From an uncultured Deinococcales bacterium (lineage in GTDB: Bacteria; Deinococcota; Deinococci; Deinococcales; JAAFIG01): a stretch of DNA of 38,932 nt. The DNA is taken from NCBI GenBank assembly GCA_964244895.1, contig CAXTKV010000020.1:1-38932 (forward strand). The letters are read 5' to 3'. The translations under genes were made by a program, and so were the position numbers. The notes under the pieces were generated by a model. It searched no databases. It was given only the letters and a program-made list of their open reading frames with translations, and had not been told where the DNA came from. This document shows positions 1-38,086 of the stretch, piece after piece. The stretch's first letter is position 1. Each line of letters begins with the position of its first letter.

Positions 1-17
1 TGCGTCCAGGACGGTGC
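1..17. repeat. Intergenic box repeat (right box only)
   Basis: TGCGTCCAGGACGGT at 1-15; a partner box would lie outside the window. Confidence 0.8.
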
Positions 18-29
18 CCGTGAGGTCGT

Positions 30-1532
30 ATGAGAGCCATTCTGTCCGTATCCGACAAGCGCGGCCTGGAAGCCTTCGCCAGAGGTCTGCTCGAGCGGGG
101 CTATGAACTCGTCTCGACCGGAGGCACCTTCAAGACGCTGCGCGAGGCAGGCTTGCAAGTCACGTACATCAGCGACGTGACGGGCTTCCCGGAGATTCTC
201 GAAGGGCGCGTCAAGACCCTGCACCCGAACGTCCACGGCGGGATTCTGGCCAAGCGCACGCCCGAACACGCCGCAGAACTCGAGCAGCACGGGATTCAGG
301 CGGTCGATCTGGTCTGCGTTAACCTCTACCCGTTCCAAGAGACGATCGCGAAAGACAACGTGACGCAAGATGATGCCCTGGAAAACATCGACATCGGCGG
401 GCCGACCATGATCCGGGCCGCCGCCAAGAACTTCCCCAGCGTGCTGGTCGTGGTCGATCCGGAAGATTACGGCGCGGTGCTCGAGAAGATTGGTCGGGAC
501 GATCCGGAGTTTCGCAAAGCGCTGGCGCGAAAGGCGTTCGCGCACACCTCGAGTTACGACGCGGCCATCACGACCTACCTGGGCGCAGAAGCCTTCGGGG
601 ATGCCCGGACGCTCGAGTTGACGCGAACCAGAAGCCTGCGCTACGGCGAGAACCCGCACCAGAACGCCAGCCTGTACCGCCTGGGGGCTGAGCGCGGGCC
701 GGTGCTGGACGCGCGGGTCGTGGCGGGTAAAGAGATGGGGTTCAACAATTACGCCGACGCGGACGCGGCCTGGGCGCTGGTTGCGGAATTCGAGATGCCC
801 GCCTGCGTGGCCGTCAAGCACGCCAACCCGTGCGGCGTGGCCGTGGCGGAGGACGCCAAAACCGCCTGGGAACGCGCCCGCGACGCCGACACGCTCTCCG
901 TCTTCGGCGGCGTGGTGGCGATCAACCGAACCGTGACGCTCGAGGTCGCACAGGCCACGCGAGGCACCTTCCTGGAAGTGCTGATCGCGCCCAGCGTGGA
1001 CGCTGACGCTATTCTGTGGTTCCACGCCAAGAAGCCCGATATGCGCGTGCTGATCGCGGGCGAATCCAGCTTTGGAAGGCTGGAATACCGCCCGATGGCG
1101 GGCGGATTTCTGGTGCAGGAGCGCGATGCGCGCGTCTGGGATGACCTCTGCCCGGAAGTCGTGACGCAAAAGCAACCCACGCTGGAGGAATGGCGCGATC
1201 TGGAGTTCGCCTGGAAGGTCGGCAAGCACGCGCGCAGCAACAACGTCGTGCTGGCCAGGAACCTGGTCACGGTCGGTCTGGGCGCGGGCGCGGTCAGCCG
1301 CATCTGGGCCGCCGAACGCGCCATCCTGAACGCGGGCGAGAACGCGAAAGGTTCTGTGCTTTCCTCCGAGGCGTTCTTTCCGTTCGACGACGTGGTGCGG
1401 GCGGCGGCGGCGGCTGGCGCGACTGCGATCATTCAGCCCGGTGGTGCGAAACGCGACCCGGAAGTGATTCAGGCCTGCGACGAACTGGGCGTGGCGATGG
1501 TCTTCACGGGCTCGAGGCACTTCAAGCACTGA
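30..1532 (+). CDS. purH: Bifunctional AICAR transformylase/IMP cyclohydrolase
   Basis: 500 aa. N-terminal SVSDK..STGGT, GRVKTLHP, NIDIGGPTMIRAAAKN, LRYGENPHQ, KHANPCG, IIQPGG and terminal RHFKH motifs. Confidence 0.98.
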   Translation: MRAILSVSDKRGLEAFARGLLERGYELVSTGGTFKTLREAGLQVTYISDVTGFPEILEGRVKTLHPNVHGGILAKRTPEHAAELEQHGIQAVDLVCVNLYPFQETIAKDNVTQDDALENIDIGGPTMIRAAAKNFPSVLVVVDPEDYGAVLEKIGRDDPEFRKALARKAFAHTSSYDAAITTYLGAEAFGDARTLELTRTRSLRYGENPHQNASLYRLGAERGPVLDARVVAGKEMGFNNYADADAAWALVAEFEMPACVAVKHANPCGVAVAEDAKTAWERARDADTLSVFGGVVAINRTVTLEVAQATRGTFLEVLIAPSVDADAILWFHAKKPDMRVLIAGESSFGRLEYRPMAGGFLVQERDARVWDDLCPEVVTQKQPTLEEWRDLEFAWKVGKHARSNNVVLARNLVTVGLGAGAVSRIWAAERAILNAGENAKGSVLSSEAFFPFDDVVRAAAAAGATAIIQPGGAKRDPEVIQACDELGVAMVFTGSRHFKH

Positions 1533-1611
1533 GTCAGGCACTGAGTCGGCCCGCGCTCTCGGGTTCGGTCGTGATCACCTCGAATACATCCGGGCGACGA
1601 ATCAGAATGGC

Positions 1612-1663
1612 GAGAACACCGTCCAGCACGCAAATATAAATATGCGTGCTGGACGGTGTTCTC
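1612..1663. repeat. Paired box repeat, 10-bp spacer
   Basis: GAGAACACCGTCCAGCACGCA-AATATAAATA-TGCGTGCTGGACGGTGTTCTC, a perfect 21-bp inverted repeat. Confidence 0.95.
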
Positions 1664-1820
1664 CGATCTCGCTGCGAAAATTGATCGCGCTGGGGCTGTG
1701 CGCGCGGTCGCGCATCGGCCAACGACCCGTTCGCCCTCGAGCGGCAACGTTGTCTCGGATTCCGGCGCAGCGAGGCTCGAGCATCAAACCGCGCGTTATA
1801 CACGGGCTTATCGGGTCAAA

Positions 1821-1838
1821 AACACCGTCCCCCACGCA
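1821..1838. repeat. Single box
   Basis: AACACCGTCCCCCACGCA. Confidence 0.75.
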
Positions 1839-1905
1839 ATTCTCATCGGCTGCAAATGCGAAATTTTGACAGTTTGGATTTGAAGGCGTCGTTACACTCG
1901 GCACG

Positions 1906-2424
1906 ATGCTTCCAAGACTCGCAGTGCTCATCGGTATGCTCGCGCTGATCGGTTGCGCGCCCGCCAACAACAGGATCTCGCGCGATGCGTACCGCACCCA
2001 GGACGTGGTGCACGACTTCAAACCCGACCGCGGCGAGGGCGCGAACTACAAGCTCGGCGAGTACGTGCGCTTCGCGTTCACGCTGACCCAACCCGGCTAC
2101 GTGACCGTGATCGCCGCCGACTCGAGCGGCATCTACGAACTCGAGCGCAACGTTCAACTGGCGGCTGGAACGCGCAACCTGCCGCTCAAAACCGATGTCA
2201 ACGCGCAGGGTGAAAGCGCCGCGTACAAGATCTCGCCACCCACCGGGATTCAGCGCGTGATCTTGCTCTACACCGACGCACCCGGCCCCGCCAAAAGCGC
2301 CGTCAAGTTCGAGGGCGCGTTCGACAACGCGCGGCTCGAGGAGGCCGTGCGCGCCTTCTTCGAGGGTTCCAGAGCCCGCGCCCGCGACATCGGGGAACTG
2401 ACGATCAACGTGGAGGGCAAATGA
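1906..2424 (+). CDS. Lipoprotein, DUF4384-like
   Basis: Lipobox LIGC. Y.LGE.VRF.FTL..PGYVTV pattern and PPTG. Leaderless-type TACACT 7 nt before ATG. Confidence 0.75.
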   Translation: MLPRLAVLIGMLALIGCAPANNRISRDAYRTQDVVHDFKPDRGEGANYKLGEYVRFAFTLTQPGYVTVIAADSSGIYELERNVQLAAGTRNLPLKTDVNAQGESAAYKISPPTGIQRVILLYTDAPGPAKSAVKFEGAFDNARLEEAVRAFFEGSRARARDIGELTINVEGK

Positions 2425-3611
2425 ACAAAAAACGGCTCGCACCGATGATCATTCCGATCATCACCGCAGCGCTCGTGGCCTGCCCCGCCGCGCCCGCCGC
2501 GCCGACCATCGGCGTCAACTCGAACGTCAAGGTGCTGGCCGCCGCCGACGTGACCACCGCCGACCCGACCCAACTCGAGGTCAGCACGCCCGGCCTGGCC
2601 GCCGGGGACGTGGTCGTGTCCGACTTCAAAGACACCGACGACGACGGATTGCTGCGCCGCGTCACCAGCGTCACGACCGCATCCGTGCCCAACCCTTCAG
2701 GCGTCGGGCCGCAAGCCATCACGAAGGTTTACGTCAAGACCGAAGCCGCCACCCTGGAAGACGTTTTCAGCAACGGCGAGGCCGACATCCCGTTCGGTGG
2801 GCTGGACTTCGGTAACGTCAGCACCCAGACCGCCCAGGGCGTGCAGGTCGAGGCGGTCACAGGCAACATCACGCTCACCAACATCAAATTGCCCCTGCCC
2901 AACGGCGTGGGCGACGTGACCTTCAACGGTTCGATCAGCCAGAGCCTCGAGCCGACCTTCAAGCTGACCTTCGCCAGCGGCAAAGTCGATCAGTTCGAGA
3001 TCGGGCTGGCCGGAACGCTGGCGGCAACCTTGAAAGCAAAAATCAGCACGACCGCCAAGTACACGAACCTCGATCTGGAAAAATCCATCGCCAGCACCAG
3101 CATCAGACGGTTGTTCCTGATCGGCGGCATCCCGGTGATCGTGGTGATCGAACCGAAGGTCGTGATCGGCATGAGCGGCGGCGCGAGCGACAAAGTCACG
3201 GTCGAGGCGGGCATCGCGCCCACCCTGTCGGGCGCGTTCAAGGTCGCCTACAACGCCAAGCTCGCCAGCACGAAGCGCTGGACGACCTCGTGGACGCCAC
3301 CGAAGTTCAACCTCAACCCGAGCTTCAGCTACACCGTGCCAACTTCCGCGACCGGGCAGACCTTCGCCAAGCTGGTGATGGATGTCAAATTTTACGGACT
3401 GTTCGGGCCGAGCCTCGAGACGAAACCGTACCTGGGGTTGACCCTGAAACCCGACAGCACCGCCACCACGGAAGCAGGATTGGCCGCCACGGGCACGCTC
3501 AAGGCGGGCCTGAGCGTTCTGGGCAAAAGCATCGAGATCGCCACCGATCCGTTGACGCAGAAGGCCAGCCAGGGTTACACCTGCTCAGCCTCGAGCGGTA
3601 AGTGCCAGTAA
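2421..3611 (+). CDS. Beta-rich lipoprotein of unknown function
   Basis: 396 aa. Signal peptide with lipobox LVAC, Thr/Gly/Val-rich. ATGA overlap with the upstream gene. Followed by a terminator. Confidence 0.85.
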   Translation: MNKKRLAPMIIPIITAALVACPAAPAAPTIGVNSNVKVLAAADVTTADPTQLEVSTPGLAAGDVVVSDFKDTDDDGLLRRVTSVTTASVPNPSGVGPQAITKVYVKTEAATLEDVFSNGEADIPFGGLDFGNVSTQTAQGVQVEAVTGNITLTNIKLPLPNGVGDVTFNGSISQSLEPTFKLTFASGKVDQFEIGLAGTLAATLKAKISTTAKYTNLDLEKSIASTSIRRLFLIGGIPVIVVIEPKVVIGMSGGASDKVTVEAGIAPTLSGAFKVAYNAKLASTKRWTTSWTPPKFNLNPSFSYTVPTSATGQTFAKLVMDVKFYGLFGPSLETKPYLGLTLKPDSTATTEAGLAATGTLKAGLSVLGKSIEIATDPLTQKASQGYTCSASSGKCQ

Positions 3612-3624
3612 ACTCTTGACCTTC

Positions 3625-3659
3625 AGCCCGAGCCGCGCCGAACGCAGCTCGGGCTTTTT
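3625..3659 (+). terminator. Intrinsic terminator
   Basis: AGCCCGAGC...GCTCGGGCT stem followed by TTTT, 14 nt after the stop codon. Confidence 0.75.
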
Positions 3660-3752
3660 CGTATCGCTCGAGCCCAGAAAAACGCTCAAAATCGCAATAT
3701 CTGGCGAATATCGCGTTAGTTCAGCCACTTCAAGGTTCAGTCGATGCGCGCA

Positions 3753-3772
3753 AGAACACCGTCCAGCACGAC
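3753..3772. repeat. Single box (partner decayed)
   Basis: AGAACACCGTCCAGCACGAC. Confidence 0.8.
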
Positions 3773-3907
3773 TTAAACGCGTATGCGGTCTGAGCGCCGA
3801 CCGTGAAGGTGTGACCGGAGCGGAAAAAACCGAGCCACAAACCGATATCCTGCGCGCAGGACGTTGAGCATCGAAGCGCTGAAAACCCGTCAACCCGGAG
3901 GAAGCTT

Positions 3908-4936
3908 TTGATTCACAAACGCATGCCACTCGCCATCGCCGCGACGCTCATTCTGGCCTGCGCGACCCTGAGCATCGGCTCGAGCCCGAGCGCCAGCATC
4001 ACGCTCGAGCAGGCTCCCGCGACCTCGGGCAGTCCGCCCCAGACGACTCTACCGCTGCCCCCACAGCTACCCACCCCGTTGCCACCACCGGTCAACACCA
4101 AACCCGACTGGCGCGACATCAAAACCTGGGCGGTGCAATACCAGGGCTTCAAGCAGGATCGTCCGACAGACCTCAGCCCAATCGTGAATGCGCGCGGCCT
4201 GAACATGATCGTGCTGGGGCGCTTCGATGGCTGGGGCCGCGAATGGGAACCCGCCAACATCAACAACCTCAAAAAAGGCATGTGGGTGTTCTCGTACCTT
4301 TCGGCTGGTCAGGCACAGAGCGGCGAATGGTACTGGGAAAAGGACTGGACGGTCGGCAATCCGGCCTGGATTCTGAACCGTTGGACGATCAGCGCGGGCA
4401 CGAACACGGGTTCGTACAACGTCGCGTACTGGCATCGCGACTGGCAGAACCTGATGCTGAGAACCATCGACCGGATCATCGCGAACGGTTTCGACGGCGT
4501 GTTTCTGGATCAGGCCGATTCGTACTGGAACCCGGATTTTCCCGGCGGGCCGTCCAGGGAAAATCAGAACCGCACGATAGACCTGGTCTGCAAGATCGCC
4601 AGTTACGCGCGCAGCAAAACGAAAAACCAGTTCCGTATCGTCACCAACGGCACGGTCGAGTTGATCGGTCTGCGCGGCTACACGAACTGCTGGGATGGAA
4701 TTTCCGCAGAGCAACTCTGGTATTTCGAGGATGGTAAACCGCAGCGCGCCAGCTACCGAGATTACATATTGGGCGAGTTGCCTCGGGCCACGCGGATCGG
4801 TAAGAAGGTCTTCACCTTCGATTTCACGCGCGTTCCCGCCGAGATCGAACGCAGCCGCAAGGACGCGACCAGGCGCGGTTTCATCCCTTTTTTCACCGAC
4901 CCTGCGGTCAGCACCACGCCGAAGTTTTACCGGTAG
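3908..4936 (+). CDS. Exported GH114 / TM1410-type endo-alpha-1,4-polygalactosaminidase-like hydrolase
   Basis: GGAGG before the TTG start, signal peptide, Pro-rich linker. WAVQYQ, YLSAGQA...WYW, VAYW...W, GFDGVFLD and AEQLW motifs. Confidence 0.8.
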   Translation: MIHKRMPLAIAATLILACATLSIGSSPSASITLEQAPATSGSPPQTTLPLPPQLPTPLPPPVNTKPDWRDIKTWAVQYQGFKQDRPTDLSPIVNARGLNMIVLGRFDGWGREWEPANINNLKKGMWVFSYLSAGQAQSGEWYWEKDWTVGNPAWILNRWTISAGTNTGSYNVAYWHRDWQNLMLRTIDRIIANGFDGVFLDQADSYWNPDFPGGPSRENQNRTIDLVCKIASYARSKTKNQFRIVTNGTVELIGLRGYTNCWDGISAEQLWYFEDGKPQRASYRDYILGELPRATRIGKKVFTFDFTRVPAEIERSRKDATRRGFIPFFTDPAVSTTPKFYR

Positions 4937-4967
4937 GTTCTTCTCGAGCGCACGGCCAGAGTTCGCA

Positions 4968-5012
4968 GCTCGAGTTCGCGGATCGGCTTACGGCTCGAGT
5001 TCGCGGATCGGC
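4968..5012. repeat. 20-bp direct repeat x2
   Basis: GCTCGAGTTCGCGGATCGGC at 4968-4987 and 4993-5012. Confidence 0.9.
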
Positions 5013-5016
5013 GCAC

Positions 5017-5078
5017 GAGAACACCGTCCAGGACGGTGTTCTTTGACGATCAAAATAGTGCGTCCTGGACGGTCTTCC
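5017..5078. repeat. Paired box repeat, 21-bp spacer
   Basis: Boxes 5023-5037 and 5059-5073. Confidence 0.9.
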
Positions 5079-5197
5079 CGAGCCTGAAGCTCGAGATATC
5101 GCGCGATACCACCGTGCAGGCAGACACACACTGTTATGCTACAACCGCCTCAATCAACCGACCGCGCTCCCGAGGCCAACGAGGATCACACGCACCG

Positions 5198-6130
5198 ATG
5201 AACCGTTTCATGCTCCTTTCGTGCTGCGCCGCGCTCGCCGTGAGCGTTCAGGCGCTCAGCAACCCAGCCCCGAAACCTGCGACCATTCAAGAGCAAATCA
5301 ACGATGACGCGCCGTTCATCAGGATCAAACCCGCCTGGCGCGACATCCAATCGTGGGGCTTGCAGTACCAGAAGTTCAAGAAAAACGACCTGCGCGAAAT
5401 CGCCGCGCTACCGATCGACCTGGTGGCGCTCGGACGGCTGGACGGTTGGGGCAAGGAATGGCAGGCCGCCAACATCAAGGATGTCAAACGCGACAAGTGG
5501 TTGCTGGCCTACATCAGCGCCGGGCAGGCTCAACCGCACGAATGGTACTGGCAGGAATCGTGGCGAGCAAACCCACCCGAATGGAAGATCGCGCGAGAGA
5601 CGCGCTTCGGGTCTTTTAACGTCTACTACTGGAACCCGGACTGGCAAAAGCTGGTCATGCAGACGATCGATCGGATCATCAAGAGCGGTTTCGACGGGAT
5701 GTTCGTCGATCAGGCCGACCCGTACTGGAACACGGGCTTTCCGGGCAGCGCCTCCCTCGAGAACCAGCAGCGATCCAAGGAACTGGTCTGCGCCATGTCC
5801 AAGTATGCTCGGGCCAAACAACCGGGCTTCAAGATCGTGACCAACGGCACGGCGGACTTGCTGGACTTTGTGGGGTTCTCGGGTTGCATCGACGGCATTG
5901 CCGCAGAACATTTGTGGTTCAAGGGAACCCACACCAAGGGCGATCCCGGCTACCGCGATTTCGTGCTGAGCCAGATGCCCAAAGCCCAGAAAGCTGGGTT
6001 GAAAATTTTTACTTTCGATTACACGGACGCCGAGGACGAGATCGCGTACACCGTCTGGCAGTCCTCCGCTCGCGGCTTCATCCCGTTCATCGGCGGACAG
6101 GGCTTGAAGGCGACGCCGAAGGTGTTTTGA
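5198..6130 (+). CDS. Exported GH114-like hydrolase (paralogue of the upstream gene)
   Basis: Start moved to ATG 5198 (MNRFMLL signal peptide), because the ORF-track start runs through a repeat element. Same motifs: WGLQYQ, YISAGQA, GFDGMFVD, AEHLW. Confidence 0.8.
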   Translation: MNRFMLLSCCAALAVSVQALSNPAPKPATIQEQINDDAPFIRIKPAWRDIQSWGLQYQKFKKNDLREIAALPIDLVALGRLDGWGKEWQAANIKDVKRDKWLLAYISAGQAQPHEWYWQESWRANPPEWKIARETRFGSFNVYYWNPDWQKLVMQTIDRIIKSGFDGMFVDQADPYWNTGFPGSASLENQQRSKELVCAMSKYARAKQPGFKIVTNGTADLLDFVGFSGCIDGIAAEHLWFKGTHTKGDPGYRDFVLSQMPKAQKAGLKIFTFDYTDAEDEIAYTVWQSSARGFIPFIGGQGLKATPKVF

Positions 6131-6179: not shown

Positions 6180-6229
6180 AGAACACCGTCCAGCACGCAT
6201 TATTTAATTCGCGTCCTGGACGGTGTTTT
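6180..6229. repeat. Paired box repeat, 10-bp spacer
   Basis: Boxes 6185-6199 and 6210-6224. Confidence 0.93.
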
Positions 6230-7881: not shown

Positions 7882-7927
7882 AACACCGTCCAGCACACGA
7901 ATCCTGAAATACGTGCTGGACGGTGTT
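7882..7927. repeat. Paired box repeat, 10-bp spacer
   Basis: Boxes 7885-7899 and 7910-7924. Confidence 0.93.
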
Positions 7928-11028: not shown

Positions 11029-11174
11029 AACACCGTCCAGGAAGCAAAAATTGAAGCCAATACCGAACCCGCGAACTCGAGACGCGCTTAAAGCAGCACG
11101 TAGCCGATGCGAACACCGTCCCAGACGGTACTTTTGATCCCAAATGAACAGATATCGCGTCCTGAACGGCATTC
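11029..11174. repeat. Three boxes (one single, one pair with 26-bp spacer)
   Basis: Boxes 11032-11046, 11115-11129 and 11156-11170. Confidence 0.8.
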
Positions 11175-12664: not shown

Positions 12665-12713
12665 GACACCGTCCAGCACGCACTTCAAGAACACCGTCCT
12701 GGACGGTGTTCTT
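12665..12713. repeat. Paired box repeat, 10-bp spacer
   Basis: Boxes 12668-12682 and 12693-12707. Confidence 0.93.
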
Positions 12714-14023: not shown

Positions 14024-14071
14024 GAGAACGCCGTCCGGGACGCGAGCCAGGATCATCGTCCAGGATGGTGC
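14024..14071. repeat. Paired box repeat, 10-bp spacer
   Basis: Boxes 14030-14044 and 14055-14069. Confidence 0.8.
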
Positions 14072-15511: not shown

Positions 15512-15557
15512 AACACCGTCCAGAACGCAGTTAAAATTGCGCGTCCTGGACGGTGTT
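15512..15557. repeat. Paired box repeat, 10-bp spacer
   Basis: Boxes 15515-15529 and 15540-15554. Confidence 0.93.
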
Positions 15558-16761: not shown

Positions 16762-16805
16762 CACCGTCCCAGACGCGGTTCTGAGCTTGCGCACCAGAGG
16801 GTGTT
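16762..16805. repeat. Paired box repeat, 10-bp spacer (right box degenerate)
   Basis: Boxes 16763-16777 and 16788-16802. Confidence 0.7.
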
Positions 16806-18158: not shown

Positions 18159-18207
18159 GAACACCGTCCAGCACACGGTCTAAGATATGTGTGCTGGACG
18201 GTGTTCT
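18158..18207. repeat. Paired box repeat, 10-bp spacer
   Basis: Boxes 18163-18177 and 18188-18202; 19-bp perfect inverted repeat. Confidence 0.95.
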
Positions 18208-23083: not shown

Positions 23084-23132
23084 AGAAGACCGTCTCAGAC
23101 GCGAATCATAAATCTCGTACAGGACGGTATTT
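23084..23132. repeat. Paired box repeat, 10-bp spacer
   Basis: Boxes 23089-23103 and 23114-23128. Confidence 0.8.
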
Positions 23133-23467: not shown

Positions 23468-23513
23468 TACCGTCCCGGACGCATCCTCGAGAACACCGTG
23501 CTGGACGGTGTTC
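23468..23513. repeat. Paired box repeat, 11-bp spacer
   Basis: Boxes 23469-23483 and 23495-23509. Confidence 0.9.
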
Positions 23514-24488: not shown

Positions 24489-24548
24489 AGAAGACCGTCC
24501 GGGACGCTATTCTCGAGATTCAAAAAACATCGTTCGGGACGGTTTTTT
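24489..24548. repeat. Paired box repeat, 20-bp spacer
   Basis: Boxes 24494-24508 and 24529-24543. Confidence 0.85.
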
Positions 24549-24672: not shown

Positions 24673-27600
24673 ATGAGCACGGCCAGCGCGGACCGTTATT
24701 CAATCGTGCGCGAACTGGGCGCGGGAGCCACCAGCCGCGTCAGTCTGGCCGTGGATCTTTTGACGGGCGAGCAGGTCGCGATCAAGCAACTCTTCGAGAC
24801 GGGCACGTTGCAGGGCGGCGTGCGAATGCGCCGCGAATTCCGGGCGCTGAAACGCCTGGAGCATCCGAACGTCGTGCGGGTGCTGGATTTCGGTGAGCAA
24901 CGCACGCCGTACATCGTGATGGAATTCGTGCCCGGCGAGGATCTCTCGACCTGGCTCGAGAAAAGCCCGGATCTGGGCGCGATCGCGCACGTTTTCGCGC
25001 AGATCGCGGACGCGCTTTCCGGCGTTCACGGTCAGGGTCTGATCCACCGCGATCTCAAACCGGAAAACATTCGGGTCACGCCGGAAGGACAGGCCAAGCT
25101 GATGGATTTCGGGCTGGCCAAGAACCTGGAGAGCAGCGTCGCGATCACGCGCGTCGGCGCGGTCGTCGGCACGGTCTTGTACATGGCGCCGGAACAGTGC
25201 CGGGGCGCGGAGATCGACTACCGCGCCGACCTGTACGCGCTGGGTGCGCTGATGTACCGCGCCTTCACCGGTCAGCCGCCCTTTCCCGGCGAGAGCCTGG
25301 CGCAGGTGATCCTGGCGCACATCCAGCAAGCGCCCAGACCACCCAGGCAGTTGCGTTCTGATCTGCCGGAATCGCTGGAGGCGTTGATCCTGAGCTTGCT
25401 CGCCAAGCACCCGCTGGATCGCCCGCAGACGGCAGTCGCGGTGCGCGATGCGCTGATCGGGATTCTGAAGGACGCGCTGGGCGCATCTCTGGGCGGCGAG
25501 GACGCGCTGGGCGCGGCGGACGGCAGCGCGCGCGCGGACGCGCTCTTGGTCGCGCCGTTGCTGGGCCGGGACGAGGCGCTTTCCAGCCTAGAATTTTTGC
25601 TCGACTTCGATCACGATGCGCCGCTGGTGGCGGTCACGGGCGACGCGGGCATCGGCAAGACGCGATTGTTGCGCACGCTCGAGGAGCGCGCTGCGGTCGA
25701 GCGCAAACGGATCGTCTGGGGCGAGGCAGCTCTGCACGATCCGACGCCGTTCGGCGCGATCTCGCGGCTGATTCAGGGCCTGTCGCGGCACCACAAAAGC
25801 GTGCTGGACGGTCTTTCGGATGCGGATCGGACGGAACTCTCGAGGATCGCGCCCTCGCTCGGCGAGGCTCCGCCACCGGATTCTTCCCTGCCGCCGGAAT
25901 TGCAGCGCCTGCGGCTTTTTGAAGCCTTCACGACGCTCCTGGAGCGCGCGTCCAGGGTGGCGGTGCTGGTGCTGGAAAACCTGCACTGGGCGGACGAGAG
26001 CACGCTCAATTTGCTGGCGCACGCCACGCGAGCCGTGCAGCACCCCAGGTTGATCGTGACCTACCGCATCGAGGATTTGCCCGAGGGCAGCGACACGCCG
26101 CGCGGCCTGAGCAAACCGGGGTTGACGCTCGACCTGGAACCCCTCTCGGAAGCCACCATGCGCGAACTGCTGAACGCCCGGCTGGGCGGCGCGGTCGAGG
26201 CGGGGCTGGCCTTCGAGCTGGTGTCTCGGGCGGACGGCAACCCGTGGGTGCTGGAAGAGCAACTGAAATTAATGCTCGAATCGGGCGCGCTGGCGCGGCG
26301 CGCGGGCGTCTACGAGTGGAACCAGAAATCGGTCACCAAAGCGCCGAGCGGTGGGCTGGTGACCTCGAGCCTGGACGACCTCTTGACCCAACGCCTGTCC
26401 ACGCTGCCCGCGGCGGCGTTGGAATTCGCGCGGGCGGCGGGCGTGCTGGGGCGCAGTTTCTTGTTCGAGGACGCCCGCAGTCTGCTGGAATGGGACGACG
26501 AGACCGCCCTGGACGCGCTCGAGCAGCTCGTGCGCTCTCGGGTCGTGACTGAAACGCCGGGCACGCGCGGCGAGGGCTACCGTTTCACGCACCCGCTCTA
26601 CGCGCAGACCCTGGAGAACTCTCTGATCAGCTTGCGGCGCAAACGCTTGCACGCCAGGGCCGCGCAGCGTCTGGAGCACCGCGCGCCGCCGATGGCGTTG
26701 GCGCAGCACCACCGCGAGGCGGGCGAGGACGCGCGCGCCCTCGAGTACGCGCTGTCCGCCGGGCGCAACGCGCAGGCGGCGTTCTCGTACCCGCTGGCGG
26801 AGCGCGCGTATCGGCTCGGGCTCGAGGCATCCAAGGCGCTCGATGGGAACCTGCGCGGGCTGTTGTGCGCGCACTACCTGGCGCAGGTGCTGTCCGCCAC
26901 GGGTCGCAACGAGGAAGCTGTGTGGTTGTGGGCGCAGGTGATCGATCAGGCGCCGCGCCTGCCGGGTGGCGAGACGCTGGCCGCCAACGCCAAGATCAGC
27001 CTGGTGGTGGTGCAGCGCCGCCAGGGTTCAATCGAGGACAGCCTTTCACTGTTGGGCGAACCGCAGCGCAACACGCCGCTGTTCGACGAGCTGTGCGTCG
27101 AGCTGTGCGCCGTTTACCGCGCGCTGAACGACCTGCCCAAAGCCCGGCATTACGGGCTCGAGGCGCTGGCCGAATCCCGACGCCTGGGCAAGACGGGCAC
27201 GCTGGTCAAGGCGCTGGTCAACCTGGCGGAAGTCGAGAACGCGCTCGGGCGGGCGTCCCGAGCGGAGCGTCTGTTGCGCCTGGCGACGGGCTTCGCGGAA
27301 CGCGGCGAGAACCACCACCTGCGATCGCTGGCCTGGAACAACCTGGGCAGCACGCTGTACCTTCAGGCTCGAGACGACGAGGCGCTCGAGGCCTGGGAGA
27401 CCGCCGCGCGCTCCAGCCGCATCATCGGTGATATCGCCTACCAGGCCACGCTGGAAGTCAACATCGCGCTGATCTTGATGGGTCAGGACGATTTCAGCGA
27501 GGCGCTGGCGCGATTCGAGGCCGCCTCCAGCCTGAGCGAACGCGCCGGTTACGCCACCATCCAGAAGCACGCGCTGTACAACGCGGGCGTCTGCGAGTAC

Positions 27601-28119
27601 GCGCTCGGGCATCTCGAGCGGGCCAGGGAGCGCTTCAGGTCCATCACCAACCACGTGCGCGAACCCGTTTCAAAAGTCTGGGTGACGCGCATCACGCTGG
27701 CGTTGGGTGATGCCTTCGTGCTGGACTTGCCGGAACTGCCCGGTCATTTCGGGCAGAACGTCTACCGGGCCGCGCAGGTCGAGCTGCAACTCAGCTTCGC
27801 GGCCTACGAAACCGTGCTGAAGATGACCTATACCGACAACGAGGACGAGTGGTGGTTCTGGGCGCTGGCTCGGGTTCACGCCTGCTGGCGGCTCGGACTG
27901 GATTTCAGCGCGCCGCTCGAGCAATTGCTGGACGTATCCCAATCGATGATGCTCAAGACTTCACTGGCGCTCGAGTACGCCCGGTTCGTCGAACGGGTCG
28001 TCGAGGGCGACTGGAACGACGCGACCCGCGCGGAGCTGAATGATCGCGTCGAGGCGTACCGCGCCTCCGTGATCGGCGTGTTCGCCAGGGACGCAGCGAT
28101 GGCGCTCTCAGGGCTTTAG
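24673..28119 (+). CDS. Hanks-type Ser/Thr kinase - STAND (AAA_16-like) ATPase - TPR protein
   Basis: GAGA, VAIK, HRDLKPEN, DFG, APE kinase motifs. Walker A GDAGIGKT, ENLHWAD, GNP, YRFTH. C-terminal TPR-like helices. Confidence 0.92.
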   Translation: MSTASADRYSIVRELGAGATSRVSLAVDLLTGEQVAIKQLFETGTLQGGVRMRREFRALKRLEHPNVVRVLDFGEQRTPYIVMEFVPGEDLSTWLEKSPDLGAIAHVFAQIADALSGVHGQGLIHRDLKPENIRVTPEGQAKLMDFGLAKNLESSVAITRVGAVVGTVLYMAPEQCRGAEIDYRADLYALGALMYRAFTGQPPFPGESLAQVILAHIQQAPRPPRQLRSDLPESLEALILSLLAKHPLDRPQTAVAVRDALIGILKDALGASLGGEDALGAADGSARADALLVAPLLGRDEALSSLEFLLDFDHDAPLVAVTGDAGIGKTRLLRTLEERAAVERKRIVWGEAALHDPTPFGAISRLIQGLSRHHKSVLDGLSDADRTELSRIAPSLGEAPPPDSSLPPELQRLRLFEAFTTLLERASRVAVLVLENLHWADESTLNLLAHATRAVQHPRLIVTYRIEDLPEGSDTPRGLSKPGLTLDLEPLSEATMRELLNARLGGAVEAGLAFELVSRADGNPWVLEEQLKLMLESGALARRAGVYEWNQKSVTKAPSGGLVTSSLDDLLTQRLSTLPAAALEFARAAGVLGRSFLFEDARSLLEWDDETALDALEQLVRSRVVTETPGTRGEGYRFTHPLYAQTLENSLISLRRKRLHARAAQRLEHRAPPMALAQHHREAGEDARALEYALSAGRNAQAAFSYPLAERAYRLGLEASKALDGNLRGLLCAHYLAQVLSATGRNEEAVWLWAQVIDQAPRLPGGETLAANAKISLVVVQRRQGSIEDSLSLLGEPQRNTPLFDELCVELCAVYRALNDLPKARHYGLEALAESRRLGKTGTLVKALVNLAEVENALGRASRAERLLRLATGFAERGENHHLRSLAWNNLGSTLYLQARDDEALEAWETAARSSRIIGDIAYQATLEVNIALILMGQDDFSEALARFEAASSLSERAGYATIQKHALYNAGVCEYALGHLERARERFRSITNHVREPVSKVWVTRITLALGDAFVLDLPELPGHFGQNVYRAAQVELQLSFAAYETVLKMTYTDNEDEWWFWALARVHACWRLGLDFSAPLEQLLDVSQSMMLKTSLALEYARFVERVVEGDWNDATRAELNDRVEAYRASVIGVFARDAAMALSGL

Positions 28120-28168: not shown

Positions 28169-28225
28169 TACACCGTCCTGGACAGCGTTTTTTGATTCCT
28201 CAAAAGTGCCGTGCTGGACGGTGTC
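28169..28225. repeat. Paired box repeat, 21-bp spacer
   Basis: Boxes 28172-28186 and 28208-28222. Confidence 0.85.
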
Positions 28226-29296: not shown

Positions 29297-29354
29297 GAGA
29301 CCGTCCAGCACGCGAATCCTCGAGTCCCGAGGATACCGTCTGGGACGGTCTTCC
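29297..29354. repeat. Paired box repeat, 20-bp spacer
   Basis: Boxes 29300-29314 and 29335-29349. Confidence 0.9.
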
Positions 29355-30330: not shown

Positions 30331-30349
30331 CACCGTCTGGGACAGTGTT
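30329..30349. repeat. Single box overlapping a stop codon
   Basis: AACACCGTCTGGGACAGTGTT; a further remnant GTGCTGACGGTGTT at 30447-30460. Confidence 0.8.
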
Positions 30350-31635: not shown

Positions 31636-31691
31636 AAAACACCGTGCCAGACGGTGTTCTCGAGTTTACAGAACAATCGTCCCGGACGATG
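31636..31691. repeat. Paired box repeat, 20-bp spacer
   Basis: Boxes 31641-31655 and 31676-31690, inside the rrf2-iscS gap. Confidence 0.85.
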
Positions 31692-32308: not shown

Positions 32309-32380
32309 CTCGTTCGTCGCTCGAGATGGCACGAACTCGAGATGGCTGGACGAGGTGACGGGAATCTGTAGAGTTTCGGC

Positions 32381-32632: not shown

Positions 32633-32678
32633 ACACCGTCCACCGCACAAATAAAAAACACCGTCTGGGACGGTGTTC
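32632..32678. repeat. Paired box repeat, 10-bp spacer
   Basis: Boxes 32635-32649 and 32660-32674. Confidence 0.88.
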
Positions 32679-32700
32679 TCGAGATGCTCAGGTCTGGAAT

Positions 32701-33207: not shown

Positions 33208-33300
33208 GGGGTTGAGCATAGCCTGGGTGTTCCACGCAATCTCTGAGGCGCAAGTGAGTTACGTGGCGCGCATCACTCGAGCCAGATCACTCCGGCTGAA

Positions 33301-34068
33301 TCACTCGAGGTCCGGCGCGTAAGCCCTGAGCGGCTCGAGCATCTCTCGGGCGGTCAAATCCATCTTGATCGGCGTGACGGCCACGAAACCCGCCGTCACG
33401 ACCGCGAAATCGCTGTCGGGTTCCGTGTCACCCGTCGGCGTGCCAGCCACCCAGTAGTACTCGTGCCCGTCGGGATCGACGCGCTTGTGAACGGCGTCCT
33501 TCCAGTAGTGTCCACCCTGCGGCGCGACCCGCACGCCCAGGGGTTTGCCGACCGGAAAATTCACGTTGAGAAGCGTCCTGGGCGGCAAACCTCGCTCCAG
33601 CACGGCCTGCGCGATGCGCGGCGCGTAGGCCGCCGCGTGCGAGAAATCCAGGTCTTCCTCACCGACCCGCAACGAAAACGCGATGCTCAATACGCCCATC
33701 GACGCGCCCTCGAGCGCCGCCGCGACCGTACCCGAATGCGTCAGGTCGTAGCCGAGATTGCTGCCGATGTTGATGCCGGAAACCACCAGGTCTGGCTGGC
33801 CCAGGTTGTGAACGCCTAGCACGACGCAATCGGCGGGCGTGCCATCGACGCGGTAGGCGGGAATATCGCCGAACCCGGCGGCTCTGGTGTGCTTGAAGCG
33901 CAGCGGGCGGCGCACCGTGATGCCGTGCCCGACGGCGGATTGTTCCACGTCCGGCGCGACCACGAACACGTCCCCGATTGCTTTCATGCTGAGCGCCAGG
34001 GCTTTGATGCCCGGCGAGAAGATACCGTCGTCATTGGCGACCAGAATCGTGGGTTTCTTCAAAGACAT
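33301..34068 (-). CDS. surE: 5'/3'-nucleotidase SurE
   Basis: ILVANDDG, VAP..EQS, GTPADCV, SGINIGSN, SGTVAAA. TACAAT-N7-ATG. Confidence 0.97.
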   Translation of the reverse strand: MSLKKPTILVANDDGIFSPGIKALALSMKAIGDVFVVAPDVEQSAVGHGITVRRPLRFKHTRAAGFGDIPAYRVDGTPADCVVLGVHNLGQPDLVVSGINIGSNLGYDLTHSGTVAAALEGASMGVLSIAFSLRVGEEDLDFSHAAAYAPRIAQAVLERGLPPRTLLNVNFPVGKPLGVRVAPQGGHYWKDAVHKRVDPDGHEYYWVAGTPTGDTEPDSDFAVVTAGFVAVTPIKMDLTAREMLEPLRAYAPDLE

Positions 34069-34105
34069 GGCGCGAATTGTACACCTGAGGCGGGAATCTC
34101 GAGAT

Positions 34106-34157
34106 GGGAGCACCGTCCGGGACGCGTTTCAAAATAGGCGTGCTGAACGGTGTTCCC
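34106..34157. repeat. Paired box repeat, 10-bp spacer
   Basis: Boxes 34112-34126 and 34137-34151. Confidence 0.9.
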
Positions 34158-34165
34158 GAGTCGCG

Positions 34166-34516
34166 TCACGGTCGGTTCGAGATCTGGAACGGGTTCCCTT
34201 CGGGGTCTTTTCCGTCGCAGAATCGCAGGTCATCGGACGATTGCACGCGCCCCATCTTGACGCCTCGAGCCACCAGGATGGCGCGCGCCGCATTCACGTC
34301 CTCGGCGTAGAACACGACCTTCGGCGCGCGCCGCGATGCGTTCGGAGCGCCGCCGTCGTGCAGGGCGATCGAGCATCCGCCCGCCTCGAACTCGAGCCAG
34401 CGTTTCGGGTCGTCGGGCGTGGGTTTGAGCTTCAACCCGAGAACATCGCGGTAGAACGCACCGACGCCGGGCACGTCCTCGACGAACAGGGTGATGCGCC
34501 GAACGGAAAGCTTCAT
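34166..34516 (-). CDS. VOC/glyoxalase-family protein
   Basis: FYRDVLGL, F...DV.A....L...GV, DPEGN. Confidence 0.88.
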   Translation of the reverse strand: MKLSVRRITLFVEDVPGVGAFYRDVLGLKLKPTPDDPKRWLEFEAGGCSIALHDGGAPNASRRAPKVVFYAEDVNAARAILVARGVKMGRVQSSDDLRFCDGKDPEGNPFQISNRP

Positions 34517-34583
34517 GGCTCGAGGCTACGCGATGCGATCACGCGGCGCAAGCGCTATTTTTTATCCCGAGCGAACGATTCCA

Positions 34584-34602
34584 GGCGTTCCAGACGGCGT
34601 TC
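34584..34602. repeat. Single degenerate box
   Basis: GGCGTTCCAGACGGCGTTC. Confidence 0.6.
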
Positions 34603-34621
34603 TTCAAGCTCGAGCATCAAT

Positions 34622-35326
34622 TTACCTTCTGCGCCTGTCCTCTAAACCCATGCCCAGGCGCTCCAGGTAGGCTTCCATCGCGTCCACCAGCACGACCACG
34701 GTGCGCCCATCGCGGCGGATCACGCCCTCGCGCTCGAGTTCACCGAAGTTCAAACTGACGGTTTCGCGGCGCACGGTGATCAGTTCGGCCAGCTCTTCCT
34801 GAGTCAACGGCAATTGCAGGCGCAGGCCGTCCTTGACGGGTTTGCCCTGCTCGCGGGCGAGCTGAAACAGGATGCGCGCCAGCCGCGCCGCGACCCTGGA
34901 ACTGTCCGAGATCACGCGCGAACGCAGATCGCGTTGCGCCGCTCGAGCCAGCACGCGCCCGACGGCGATGGTGAACGAGGGCACGGTATTGAAGCGGGCG
35001 CGCAGATCGCCGACTTCCCAGGTCAGGACGCTGGCGCGCGTCAGGGCCACGACTTCTGGCGTGACAAATTCCGCGTCTGCGACGGCTTCCAGCGATAAGA
35101 ATTCGCCGCCGCGTTTGACGGTCAGGACGCGCTCCTCGCCTTCCGGGGTGAAGGTCGCGAGCTTGAACCAGCCTGTTGATACATAACTGACGAAATTCGG
35201 GCGTTCATCGAAGGCGTAGAGCAAATCAGATTTTTCGATCTCGCGCCTGCGGGCCATGTCCATCAATGGCAGCGCCACCTCGTCCGGTAAGCCTTCGAGG
35301 ACGCGTGGGGACTCGAGCATGGTCAC
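34622..35326 (-). CDS. Crp/Fnr-family transcriptional regulator
   Basis: cNMP-like N-terminal domain, RLARIL, HTH LTQEELAELITVRRETVS. GTG start overlaps the upstream TGA. Confidence 0.9.
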   Translation of the reverse strand: MTMLESPRVLEGLPDEVALPLMDMARRREIEKSDLLYAFDERPNFVSYVSTGWFKLATFTPEGEERVLTVKRGGEFLSLEAVADAEFVTPEVVALTRASVLTWEVGDLRARFNTVPSFTIAVGRVLARAAQRDLRSRVISDSSRVAARLARILFQLAREQGKPVKDGLRLQLPLTQEELAELITVRRETVSLNFGELEREGVIRRDGRTVVVLVDAMEAYLERLGMGLEDRRRR

Positions 35327-35568
35327 GCCTGAGCCCCGTTCTGGTTGAGCGCCTTTGAAAGCTCCTCGTACAGAAGCTGATCCAGCACGCCCAGTTCATC
35401 GTCCAGCACGCGCTCGGAGGCCGCCAGGATGCGTTCGAGTTCGCCGATCGCCTCGCCGAACGCGCGGTTCTGAATGTTCTCGCGGAAGACCTTGACCAGA
35501 GGCGTCAGGGCTTCGCGCACGGCAGCCCGGAAGGTCTCGAGGTCGGTGTCCTGATCCACGATGCTCAC
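35323..35568 (-). CDS. Small acidic helical hypothetical protein
   Basis: GTG 35568 overlaps the stop of the response regulator (GTGA), and its own TGA overlaps the Crp start. 81 aa. Confidence 0.7.
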   Translation of the reverse strand: MSIVDQDTDLETFRAAVREALTPLVKVFRENIQNRAFGEAIGELERILAASERVLDDELGVLDQLLYEELSKALNQNGAQA

Positions 35569-36197
35569 AGCTTCCCGATCAGGTCTCGCAAACTCGAGGC
35601 GTGATCGAGATGCCACTGGCTGAGGGTCACGGGAACGCTCAGTTCGCGCGAAAGCGCATCGAGTTTGGCCAGGGCGTTCGCATCGCGGCAGAACACCAGG
35701 TAATCGCCGGGCGCGTAGCGCACAGGCATGGCTTCAATCGGCAGCAGACGCAACAGCAGGCTCGAGAGTTCGTCCTCGGCGCTTTCCGCGTCGGCTTCCA
35801 GGCGCACCCGCGCGACCTGACCGGAGAAGCGACCGCGCGATTGTGAGAGGGTTTCGCTGGCGACTTCCGGCAGTTTCGAGACGTAATGCGAGTCCTTGAC
35901 GATGTAATTGGCCGCGCCCGCCCGGAGCGCGTCGACGGCCAGTTTGGCATCGCTGCGGCCCGTCACAAACACGACGGGTACGTTCAGCCCCGAAATGGCG
36001 GTCAGCACCTGCATGCCATCCATGTCCGGCAATCCGTAATCGAGCAGCACCAGATCGAAACCCTGGCTGACGCTATCGATGCCTTTTTGTCCGGTGGTCA
36101 CGGTCGTCACGCTAAAGCCCGCTCGCTCCAGGACGCGGCTGGCCACGAGCGCGTGGTCAGGATTGTCCTCAATCAGTAGAATTCGGCGCGATTGCAA
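35565..36197 (-). CDS. Response regulator (REC) with short, possibly degenerate GGDEF-like C-terminal domain
   Basis: GGAGG then TTG. ILLIED, LLDYGLPDMDG, FVTG, GAANYIVK. Confidence 0.88.
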   Translation of the reverse strand: MQSRRILLIEDNPDHALVASRVLERAGFSVTTVTTGQKGIDSVSQGFDLVLLDYGLPDMDGMQVLTAISGLNVPVVFVTGRSDAKLAVDALRAGAANYIVKDSHYVSKLPEVASETLSQSRGRFSGQVARVRLEADAESAEDELSSLLLRLLPIEAMPVRYAPGDYLVFCRDANALAKLDALSRELSVPVTLSQWHLDHASSLRDLIGKL

Positions 36198-36295
36198 GGT
36201 TTCCTCCGCGATCTGAACGGTCTTTTCTCGCTCTCATGAAGAACAATTTTGAGTATACCCGAGGCGCTCTTTATCCGCGCTTTGTACCCTGATAG

Positions 36296-36420
36296 GCCGT
36301 TCAGGACGCTTTTCCTGAATTTATTCGGCTCGAGATGATCCGCATTCTTCACCCGTCAGCCACCCCACGAACACCGTCCCAGACGCGATTTTACCGAAAA
36401 GACCGTTTGGGACGATGTTT
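36296..36420. repeat. Single box plus pair with 14-bp spacer
   Basis: Boxes 36296-36310, 36373-36387 and 36402-36416. Confidence 0.75.
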
Positions 36421-36582
36421 TTGATGGTTTCTTTTCGATCTGGAACACTGGACACGCATTCATCTGGAAGTTGTTGATAGGCTTTGAGCCTCAGCGGAAC
36501 TTTTTTCCCTGAGACTTTTCGCCCCCAAACCCTTCGTCGCAACCGCGACCGACAAAACCCCGAGACGCACAAGGATGGTGAC

Positions 36583-38025
36583 ATGACAGCTTCCAGACAA
36601 ACTGCCACGACGCTGGGTCAACTCAAAACCCTGGGCTACCGCGCCAGAAGCGTCCAGGACGAAGTCCGCGAGAACCTGATCGAGAAACTCCGCAAGCGCG
36701 AAACGATCTTTCGCGGCGTGCTGGGTTACGAGGACACGGTCGTTCCGCAAGTCGTGAACGCGCTGTTGGCACAACAGAACTTTATTCTGCTGGGTCTGCG
36801 CGGACAGGCAAAATCGCGCATCCTGCGCGCCATCACGGATTTATTAGACCCGGAAGTGCCGTACATCGCCGGAACCGAACTGCACGACGATCCCATGAAC
36901 CCGATCTCGAGCGAAGCTCGCGCAATCCTGGCCGAAATGGGCGACGAGACGCCGATCGCCTGGATGCCGCGCGATTCGCGCTACGTCGAAAAGCTGGCCA
37001 CGCCGGACGTGACGGTCGCCGACCTAATCGGCGATGTCGACCCGATCAAGGCCGCACGCATGGGCAAGACGCTCGGTGACGAACTCACCATTCACTACGG
37101 CCTGCTGCCCCGCGCCAATCGCGGCATTTTTGCCGTCAACGAGTTGGCGGATCTCGCGCCGAAAGTCCAGGTCGGGTTGTTCAACATCATGCAAGAAGGC
37201 GACGTGCAGATTAAGGGCTACCCGATCCGATTGGAATTGGACGTGATGCTGGTCTTTTCCGCCAACCCGGAAGATTACACGGCGCGCGGCAAGATCGTCA
37301 CGCCGCTCAAAGACCGAATCGGTTCTGAAATCCGCACGCACTACCCGAACGATATCCAACTGGGCATGGGCATCACCAAACAGGAAGCCTGGCTGGAATC
37401 GGGCGGCAAGCTGCGCGCCGAGATTCCGGGATTCATCGCTGAAATGGTCGAGGAGATCGCGTTCCAGGCCCGCGAGGACAACCGCGTGGACAAGCAATCC
37501 GGGGTCAGCCAACGCCTGCCGATCAGCCTGATCGAACTGATCGCCTCCAACGCCGAACGCCGCGCGCTGGTCGCCGGTGACGACGTGGTGGCTCGCCCCG
37601 CCGACCTCTACGCGGGCTTGCCCGCCATCACCGGCAAGATGGAACTCGAATACGAAGGCGAGATGAAAGGCGCGGACAACATCGCCAAGGACATCATCCG
37701 CAAGGCCGCCGGAGCCGTCTACGGCAGGCGCGCCGCCCGCACCGACACGAAAAACATCGAGGATTGGTTCGAGGCCGGGAACACGCTCAACATTCCGCAA
37801 CTGGGCGGCGCGAAAGCCGCCGTCAAGGAACTCGAGAAGGTTCCTGGGCTGGTCAAGATCGCCCGCGAACTGGCTGAAGGCGCGAGCGACGCGCACACCC
37901 TTTCCGCCGCCGAATTCGTGCTGGAGGGTCTGTACGGGCGCAAGAAGGTTTCGCGCAGCGAAGAACTGGGCTACAGCGCCGCCGAACCCGAGCAGGTTAG
38001 AGGCAAGGGCGGGCGCTGGAACTAA
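36583..38025 (+). CDS. Mg-chelatase/MoxR-like AAA+ ATPase
   Basis: [53 protein letters not shown]. Start ATG 36583. Confidence 0.9.
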
Positions 38026-38086
38026 AAACACCGTCCCAGACGCAAATTCTGATGACTCGAGAACACCGTCCAGGACGGTGTTCTCG
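38025..38086. repeat. Paired box repeat, 20-bp spacer
   Basis: Boxes 38030-38044 and 38065-38079. Confidence 0.93.

Follow-up and report, generated by a model that had tools for sequence, protein, structure and literature searches.

A family of paired 15-bp palindromic boxes is distributed throughout the genome of an uncultured Deinococcales bacterium (assembly GCA_964244895.1; herein G000), where it was first noticed in one contig of 38,932 nucleotides (CAXTKV010000020.1, or C20; hereafter, the window). The two boxes of a pair typically lie at one of two main distances that differ by a single turn of DNA, the pairs are placed mostly just past stop codons, and elements follow one another along the chromosome more evenly than random choice among gaps would have it. 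The paired palindromes are real and genome-wide, and the family is confined to the G000 lineage. Judged from sequence, it is about an even chance that the pairs serve as twin operators for a putative dimer-of-dimers protein and that they are retained as a lattice of even spacing along the chromosome.

The G000 assembly comprises 5.12 Mb in 328 contigs (62.7% GC) and is 91% complete, the gene for ribosomal protein L3 also being absent from it; G000 is the sole member of its genus among the 19 genomes of the family that were compared. Gene positions were taken from our own dicodon caller (4,672 genes, 81% coding), for which some starts and small genes are wrong. Boxes were located with a weight matrix trained without spacing information, using a genome threshold of 11 bits and the reversed genome as control. 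Distances between box centres are denoted d, with main classes at 25-26 and 35-36 bp; d=25 corresponds to a spacer of 10 bp and d=35 to one of 20 bp.

Paired Boxes and Their Spacing

A sequence-only reading of the window had counted about 50 boxes, and 50 matches to the ideal box with at most three mismatches were indeed found, compared to 3.06 expected and to none of 100 shuffled sequences reaching 50. All 18 pairs which that reading had assigned to two spacer classes were recovered with their positions and spacers, the partner of the box at 16763 being weak (10.9 bits). It had also listed four deviant pairs; those at 11115 (spacer 26) and 36373 (spacer 14) were found, whereas those with spacers of 8 and, a second time, 14 bp were not recovered at 9 bits. 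Genome-wide, the matrix identified 5,666 boxes compared to 164 in the reversed genome, and these group into 3,619 elements, of which 1,981 are pairs, 1,606 are single boxes and 32 contain three or four boxes. At 25-26 or 34-36 bp from many of the intergenic singles lies a decayed second box, and the strong elements together occupy 2.6% of G000. The histogram of the 2,051 neighbouring centre distances between 16 and 50 bp, which had been proposed as a check for spacer peaks, is sharp, with 1,023 at 25-26 bp and 799 at 35-36 bp (1,822 together), two main classes one turn apart. Minor classes at approximately 30-31 and 41-42 bp are represented by 67 distances of 29-32 bp and 55 of 40-43 bp. The main spacings amount to 2.4 and 3.4 turns of DNA, and the minor classes are half a turn off.

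The core of the box, CGT-N5-ACG, is near-invariant, being 94-99% conserved at most positions. The outer half-boxes carry the flank GAGAAC-AC, and the inner flank is often relaxed and AT-rich. The initial description of strong outer and relaxed inner halves holds at d=25 (outer halves strong-strong in 768 of 873 pairs, inner halves relaxed-relaxed in 561 of 873); inner halves are mixed at d=35-36, and the pattern is largely reversed in the 30-31 class, which mostly has its strong halves facing inward. The 30-bp spacing is rare between genes and over-represented within them (8 of 40 coding pairs), probably because both boxes then share one reading frame.

Spacers had been described as unrelated and often AT-rich. 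AT-rich they are (29% GC at d=25 compared to 57% in intergenic DNA), but a loose bias toward a T-tract followed by an A-tract is common to them. Within the strict set, 417 of 466 spacers of 10 bp (40-bp elements) and 246 of 247 spacers of 20 bp are distinct. The homologous interior that descendants of two miniature inverted-repeat transposable element (MITE) variants would share was not seen, beyond a modest excess of identical spacers at d=25. The notion that the 20-bp spacer is a duplicated 10-mer was rejected, given a lag-10 identity of 0.228 versus 0.240 when permuted. Compared over their full 52 bp, all of the 872 d=25 elements differ from one another, the nearest-neighbour distance among them is 7.95 compared to approximately 8.3 for module-shuffled elements, and adjacent d=25 elements are no more similar than random ones (8.12 versus 8.13).

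Double-Stranded DNA and RNA Hairpins

The discrete one-turn spacings, the free spacer sequence, the strict pairing and the indifference to strand point to a rigid two-site binder acting on double-stranded DNA. We regard it as very unlikely that the elements instead act as RNA or single-strand hairpins at the 3' ends of mRNA, influencing stability, termination or ribosome stalling in the manner of repetitive extragenic palindromic (REP) sequences or their hairpin-forming doublets (REPINs). Whole elements do fold at approximately -24 to -28 kcal/mol as RNA, their median distance from the upstream stop codon is 24-26 nt, and convergent placement accounts for a larger share of d=25 pairs (269 of 1,029) than of d=35 pairs (150 of 822). 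The arms of d=25 pairs also covary at the box centre, with one compensatory arm change distinguishing a G000 contig (C118) from its metagenome counterpart (L021). However, the arms of d=35/36 pairs are independent, with 5.03 mean mismatches compared to 5.01 for permuted partners, and their folding equals that of arm-swapped controls. A comparison of G.U with A.C on the transcribed strand (610/678, 130/138, 396/512 and 190/155 at d=25, 26, 35 and 36, respectively) revealed no consistent G.U excess, and neither pairs nor singles show an orientation bias relative to transcription. Likewise, no U-tract asymmetry was observed, T after an element being as frequent as A before it, and runs of six or more T occur at 4-7% of tandem pairs. 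Ordinary terminators are equally frequent in gaps with and without an element (0.21 versus 0.25 convergent and 0.10 versus 0.12 tandem; 110 gaps per class), and Rfam gave no match in the window. An RNA hairpin would, moreover, leave the quantised loops, the exclusion of neighbours and the sites inside genes unexplained. Intrinsic terminators were considered separately and rejected, the hairpin plus U-tract signature not being found on the transcribed strand. The sequence-only reading had proposed helically phased sites on double-stranded DNA; the histogram, the retention of spacer length in two orthologues, the independent arms of the 35 class and the lack of an RNA-strand signature support this, but the binding protein that it invoked was not found.

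Placement and Spacing Along the Chromosome

Of the 1,851 main-class pairs, called genes contain only 40 (98% are non-coding), and pairs are situated at a median of 24-26 nt past the upstream stop codon. Short divergent gaps are rarely occupied (4 of 56 under 100 bp) compared to convergent gaps of 0-100 bp (142 of 222). On the contigs retained for the tests of gap occupancy and lattice spacing, from which 19 element-poor contigs were left out, 70% of gaps of at least 60 bp carry an element, fewer than the earlier impression of boxes in nearly every gap had suggested, and of gaps under 30 bp approximately 1% are occupied. A topoisomerase loader, which had been among the suggested binders, is weakly disfavoured, as gaps of at least 400 bp are occupied about equally whether convergent (0.75), divergent (0.77) or tandem (0.68).

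A gap holds one element whatever its length (variance/mean 0.29-0.47), and under both nulls of random placement, gaps over 200 bp would hold two elements far more often than was observed. The mean spacing between elements is 1.64-1.78 kb, and its coefficient of variation of 0.63, compared to 0.72 ± 0.02 for random choice among gaps, denotes a more even lattice. Elements avoid each other below approximately 1 kb; the occupancy of gaps of 80-250 bp rises from 41 to 80% the farther off the next element lies, and does so for each of the three gene orientations. Where both neighbouring genes have homologues in the related genome G006, the occupied fraction is 0.78, compared to 0.63 where neither has one, and several large contigs carry hardly any elements (C5, 1 of 28 gaps; C15, 2 of 38 gaps). 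As a marker of recent DNA acquisition in G000, the lattice is sensitive. The GC and CTCGAG contents of the element-poor contigs (C130, C156, C173, C187, C5, C15, C55, C50 and C36) are normal.

These properties recall the DNA uptake sequences (DUS) of Neisseria, and an uptake-signal-like drive was considered accordingly. Fragments bearing the phased pair would be favoured by a DNA receptor, or at some step of transformation and recombination, and sites would accumulate at about one per recombining fragment; the geometry of binding would be that of twin operators, with self-recognition of DNA as its job. Such a drive seems unlikely, despite several points in its favour. Both comEC and several ComEA-like genes, so named from their motif, are present in G000, although competence genes are widespread and silent on specificity. 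The mean spacing resembles the approximately 1.5 kb of Neisseria DUS, sites are gained in place inside genes (see below), and the higher occupancy beside genes shared with G006 is as expected. DUS, too, can replace non-matching sequence through recombination, are biased to the core genome and are not seen in recently acquired DNA, as described in the accessible part of PMC2397512. According to the same text, however, known uptake signals are short and asymmetric, a single copy is enough, and about one-third of them reside in genes; the unit in G000 is a twin palindrome, of which 40 of 1,851 main-class pairs are coding.

Gain of Sites Within and Between Genes

Gene interiors contain 140 boxes at 18 bits compared to 27-36 following synonymous shuffling, and 40 pairs lie inside called genes. 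When 144 coding sites were searched, 38 could be aligned with an orthologue, and 28 of these involved no change of length; eight others gain 1-4 residues, one loses a single residue and one gains 17. Whole pairs overwrite existing codons, with replacement of amino acids, in C274 and in two genes that we take from their motifs to be PheT-like and FadB-like. Compared to positions in genes matched for length, the 94 coding pairs and strong singles are farther from intergenic elements (quantile 0.61, p 7e-4), as opposed to a quantile of 0.49 for a weak-box control. Copies between genes add length and most coding copies do not, so copies are in part inserted and in part written in place.

This bears on the proposal of a selfish, non-autonomous element whose mobiliser needs two boxes in fixed geometry, such that only the 25- and 35-bp forms spread and the host gains nothing. 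Lineage specificity, an insertion of a whole 51-nt element into a P-type ATPase gene, and placement past stop codons, which matches that of REPs as far as the consulted portion of PMC3733652 describes it, are consistent with such an element, as are the 23 pairs gained in G000 among the 81 junctions that in G006 have under 40 bp between anchors, where genes overlap or abut. We nonetheless judge it rather improbable. There is no sign of a recent burst, given that identical 52-bp elements were not found among the 872 at d=25 and that these are near the module-shuffled distance from each other. Copies repel each other, most coding sites are not insertions, the core is kept at a locus while the spacer drifts, and no empty site was found among the listed pieces of a related low-depth sequencing run (X1), a limited sample. 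With regard to target-site duplication, flanks showed no excess of direct identity at d=25 and 35 and a slight one at d=26 and 36 (z 2.6 and 1.4, respectively), the hexamer at -16 to -11 being tested; CTCGAG on both sides was seen with 11 pairs compared to approximately 31 expected. An assignment to MITEs was rejected for the lack of target-site duplication, of a homologous interior and of near-identical recent copies.

Conservation and Distribution Among Genomes

Metagenome contig L021, 80% identical to C118 of G000, carries an element at the same place with d=25 and its core intact, and 8 of its 10 spacer bases differ. The contig of run X1 likewise keeps the window element at 14030-14069 with d=25, a 14-bp deletion having occurred just outside. 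The eight long pieces of X1 that were listed revealed no net loss of the size of a pair. The sharp histogram together with these two loci of preserved spacing implies that spacer indels are purged, though loci are few (n=2); a claim of faster-than-neutral change within the spacer was dropped for the same reason (n=2).

A strict 25-26 pattern yielded 522 matches in G000 and one each in 5 of 60 other genomes of the order, while a single-box pattern with 832 and 847 matches per strand in G000 yielded one each in 4 of 18 family members. The proposal to examine related genomes has therefore led to a family essentially restricted to G000, with lone matches elsewhere. The four in the relatives comprise two that follow tRNA-like sequences and are terminator-like, one over a gene end and one intergenic single box. 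The two after tRNA-like sequences (L052 near 1001 and L054 near 995) are single box-like hairpins with A/T tails that resemble intrinsic terminators, and they could be chance look-alikes or the seed of the box family. One of the lone matches is a perfect d=25 element in another genus, just past a stop codon in G005 (C557; L045:1662-1701). Its contig also has a transposase-like gene and a ParB gene, so the element is probably in mobile DNA and may have passed through the G000 lineage. No analogous family of dyads was detected in a 1.76-Mb sample (35%) of G006; the samples from other relatives comprised 2-28 kb. A scan of a genome collection returned at least 23 lone matches, mostly chance-like and from GC-rich Actinobacteria, and viral scans returned no pairs and 63 lone matches (about chance by estimate), none with a partner at a class distance.

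Search for a Binding or Mobilizing Protein

Members of the Y1_Tnp family (PF01797) were found in 16 of 18 relatives compared to none in G000, an assembly that is 91% complete and also lacks L3; with the same qualification, the RAYT-like mobiliser (RAYT, REP-associated tyrosine transposase) suggested by the sequence-only reading was not found there. Three paralogues of the HU/IHF family (C103:16593, C117:13596 and C10:5198) were ordinary and set aside as candidates. For 25 HTH_3 matches in G000 no link to boxes was made, and four ParB-family genes are not accompanied by any special cluster of them. The promoters of four paralogues that we presume to be LexA-like (C122:1219-1851, C45:12046-12672, C164:7845-8477 and C276:543-1175, some on element-poor contigs) lack a box, each having a different inverted repeat upstream. 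The 54 promoter-proximal elements and nine short divergent gaps precede mostly metabolic genes and pointed to no binder. A ranking of candidates by codon bias gave no result, the cluster of ribosomal proteins needed as reference not being found in G000, and a ComP_DUS search with 0 of 19 positive was uninformative, its control being silent too.

Comparison With Described Systems

The elements of REPs, bacterial interspersed mosaic elements (BIMEs) and REPINs associated with RAYTs are, by the available passages of PMC6006769 and PMC3733652, species-specific intergenic palindromes, often inverted dimers, that lie near gene 3' ends with few copies inside genes and amount to about 1% or more of a genome. 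The G000 boxes share the extragenic location, the proximity to gene 3' ends and the species specificity. They differ, however, in that position logos show the flank GAGAAC and no GTAG or GTGG guide at the foot of the hairpin, and in their two classes of spacer that differ by one turn, their occurrence one to a gap, their mutual repulsion and coding sites that arise mostly in place. Nor do they fit the CGTC families of REPs, which in the portions consulted have stems of 8-9 bp, loops of 4-5 nt and a CCA tail, the CGTC of the G000 box being inside the palindrome. REP families were compared by description, not by consensus sequence.

In the geometry of the pair, the nearest match is the ComK K-box of Bacillus subtilis, two short palindromes with discrete spacers of 8, 18 or 31 bp that are helical turns apart (PMC3536758, in part). 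As far as that text extends, the K-box is located in promoters, is rich in AT and presents its two boxes on the same face of the DNA. The G000 boxes, in contrast, are GC-rich, lie past stops at 2.4 or 3.4 turns, are rare in short divergent gaps and form approximately 2,000 pairs. The twin operator of a promoter regulon, located as are the K-box or NrdR boxes, was rejected, with 4 of 56 divergent gaps under 100 bp occupied. DUS and the uptake signal sequences of Pasteurellaceae offer thousands of lineage-specific sites, a spacing of approximately 1.5 kb, a bias to core genes and inverted pairs after genes (accessible part of PMC2397512). Even spacing, core bias and gain by replacement are found in G000 as well; the short asymmetric motif and the large coding share are not. 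DUS, as far as described there, have 10-12 bp, are asymmetric and act singly, and their inverted pairs are terminators, as opposed to a phased twin palindrome that is 98% non-coding and has no terminator signature.

Palindromic sites for dimers are familiar from the chromosome organisers MatP/matS, SlmA/SBS, Noc/NBS and ParB/parS, and pairwise cooperativity from lambda CI at OR1-OR2 and from NrdR boxes. The likeness lies in the palindromic dimer site with its structural or cooperative role, and pairwise binding would explain why boxes come in twos; those systems use tens of sites in one region or at promoters, however, compared to approximately 5,500 boxes on most contigs. Apparently within the same order, Deinococcus radiodurans possesses intergenic repeats and palindromes, the SNR and RDRM sequences (PMC1978522); by the part of the paper available, the former comprise 295 mosaic repeats of at least nine types and the latter is an upstream regulon motif, unlike the twin boxes. 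Spaced palindromes near gene 3' ends that are unexplained, with approximately 50-125 copies and one spacing each, appear in the accessible portion of PMC5217627.

In geometry the family resembles a K-box, in spacing DUS and in placement REPs, and for each of the three at least one defining test is failed. No description of the motif or of such a lattice was found in the open-access literature, and a comparison by description found no match there to a known repeat family, which had been named as grounds for abandoning the initial proposal. By these failed tests of membership and the literature, the lineage-specific box family is outside those described.

Elements of the Window

The gene content of the window is housekeeping or ordinary and includes purH, malate synthase A, purA, surE, an Rrf2 regulator and kinases. 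No strand is assigned to any element. Pairs at 25 bp are located at 1618-1657 (downstream of purH), 6185-6224, 7885-7924 (in a convergent gap, 10 nt past the malate synthase stop), 12668-12707, 14030-14069 (with the same place and spacing in the X1 contig, where 5 of 10 spacer bases differ), 15515-15554, 16763-16802 (its right box degenerate, 10.9 bits), 18163-18202, 23089-23128, 32635-32674 and 34112-34151, and a pair at 26 bp at 23469-23509. Those at 35 bp occupy 24494-24543, 29300-29349, 31641-31690 and 38030-38079, the last of these 4 nt past a stop codon; the pair at 31641-31690 lies directly past the stop of the Rrf2-family gene, and the orthologous junction of G006, where no element is present, measures 88 bp less between the anchors. 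Pairs at 36 bp are found at 5023-5073 and 28172-28222, one of the minor 41-bp class at 11115-11170, and an off-class pair at 29 bp at 36373-36416. Strong single boxes are present at 1824-1838 (20.8 bits), 3758-3772 (25.2 bits), 11032-11046 (in the divergent gap before purA), 25798-25812 (26.3 bits, within the Ser/Thr kinase gene at 24673-28119) and 30332-30346 (18.9 bits). Further single boxes lie at 34584-34598 (17.2 bits) and at the contig end at 1-15 (20.0 bits), where any partner would be off the contig. The window also encodes tandem paralogues at 3908-4936 and 5198-6130 that resemble the MJ1477/TM1410 family of putative glycoside hydrolases, both scoring below the curated cut-off.

Other Repeated and Avoided Sequences

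The palindrome CTCGAG is present in 21,883 copies in G000, 12.8 times the expectation from base composition, and the samples fetched from 16 relatives all contain it at 2.4-8.3 per kb, a HIP1-like hyper-abundance across the family. It often stands at the flank of an element, yet is a separate and older feature, and its sites show only the 3-bp periodicity of codons. No paper on family-wide CTCGAG was found, and the available part of PMC4390886 has no passage on CTCGAG or Deinococcus. Genes of approximately 500 residues with N6-adenine methyltransferase domains occur in many genomes of the family; no link to CTCGAG was made. Approximately 50 ordinary GTAG-type, REP-like hairpins coexist with the boxes in G000 (also at L021:761-784 and in L019 and L020), no Y1 transposase having been found. 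Tandem heptamer repeats in inverted arrays, often beside elements (C21, C80, C85, C89, C93 and C159), resemble the STRR repeats of cyanobacteria. Several hexamers are strongly avoided in G000: CGGCCG, CCCGGG, CCGCGG, GACGTC and GCCGGC (observed/expected 0.01-0.12).

A Putative Lattice of Twin Operators

In the proposed mechanism, two dimers of one tetramer would hold the two boxes of a pair and bend the AT-rich spacer between them. A tetramer gripping both boxes in this way would tolerate only whole-turn changes of the spacer and would gain nothing from a third box. New sites would be generated by recombinational copying or patching of existing copies together with point mutation, and would persist where neither a promoter nor a protein is harmed, just past stops and in loops that tolerate change, and where a hole in the lattice is left to fill. 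The tetramer would act as a sequence-specific chromosome organiser and, most speculatively, tetramers on neighbouring pairs might bridge the DNA into gene-sized loops. Self-spacing at about 1 kb, the filling of holes despite changes of amino acids and absence from accessory DNA suggest a small benefit, or a drive, that saturates at one pair per region. A structural lattice is preferred over an uptake drive, as a twin palindrome is a more fitting target for a cytoplasmic dimer than for an uptake pilin.

A number of observations weigh against such a lattice. Its binding protein was not found among the candidate classes examined in G000, and the main spacing classes are not at whole turns. Between the arms of d=25 pairs there is covariation at the box centre (z 8.9 and 7.9) and anti-covariation at +7 to +9, perfect-arm pairs number 72 compared to 17 expected, and d=25 elements fold 1.4 kcal/mol better than arm-swapped controls; the covariation and the perfect arms count against a purely double-stranded reading, and we ascribe them, by inference, to template-switch correction or to the symmetry of the complex. 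Identical d=25 spacer pairs number 218 compared to 55-103 in simulations. Elements hug either stop even in long convergent gaps, as REPs do, and the test of position within a box's own gene was non-significant (p 0.17). Junctions bearing a pair are longer than their G006 counterparts by a median of 74.5 bp (n=78), compared to -0.5 bp where no element is present (n=138), and the P-type ATPase gene carries its 51-nt element as a clean insertion, which together indicate that some copying mechanism exists that the lattice model does not name. Finally, even spacing and absence from accessory DNA fit an uptake-signal drive equally well.

To our knowledge, the sequence-specific chromosome organisers of bacteria use tens of sites, and the motifs that occur in thousands (REP, DUS and HIP1) are short or hairpin-based. 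The G000 family joins an operator-like helical geometry to DUS-like even spacing and in-place gain. A bolder extension, for now possible but doubtful and resting on the sequence pattern, is a CTCF-like, sequence-addressed lattice in which thousands of self-spacing twin operators and one new tetrameric protein would organise the whole chromosome into gene-sized loops. On that tentative view there would be about one pair for each gene or operon, set in intergenic DNA and even over essential codons. If a protein does bind the pairs, so precise a motif would make it easy to isolate, and the bound sites would make it possible to test directly whether a bacterium can use sequence to address the entire chromosome. 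The alternative outcome would be a third independent origin of sequence-specific DNA uptake. Some of the repeats presently classed as REP-like may likewise be double-stranded binding lattices.

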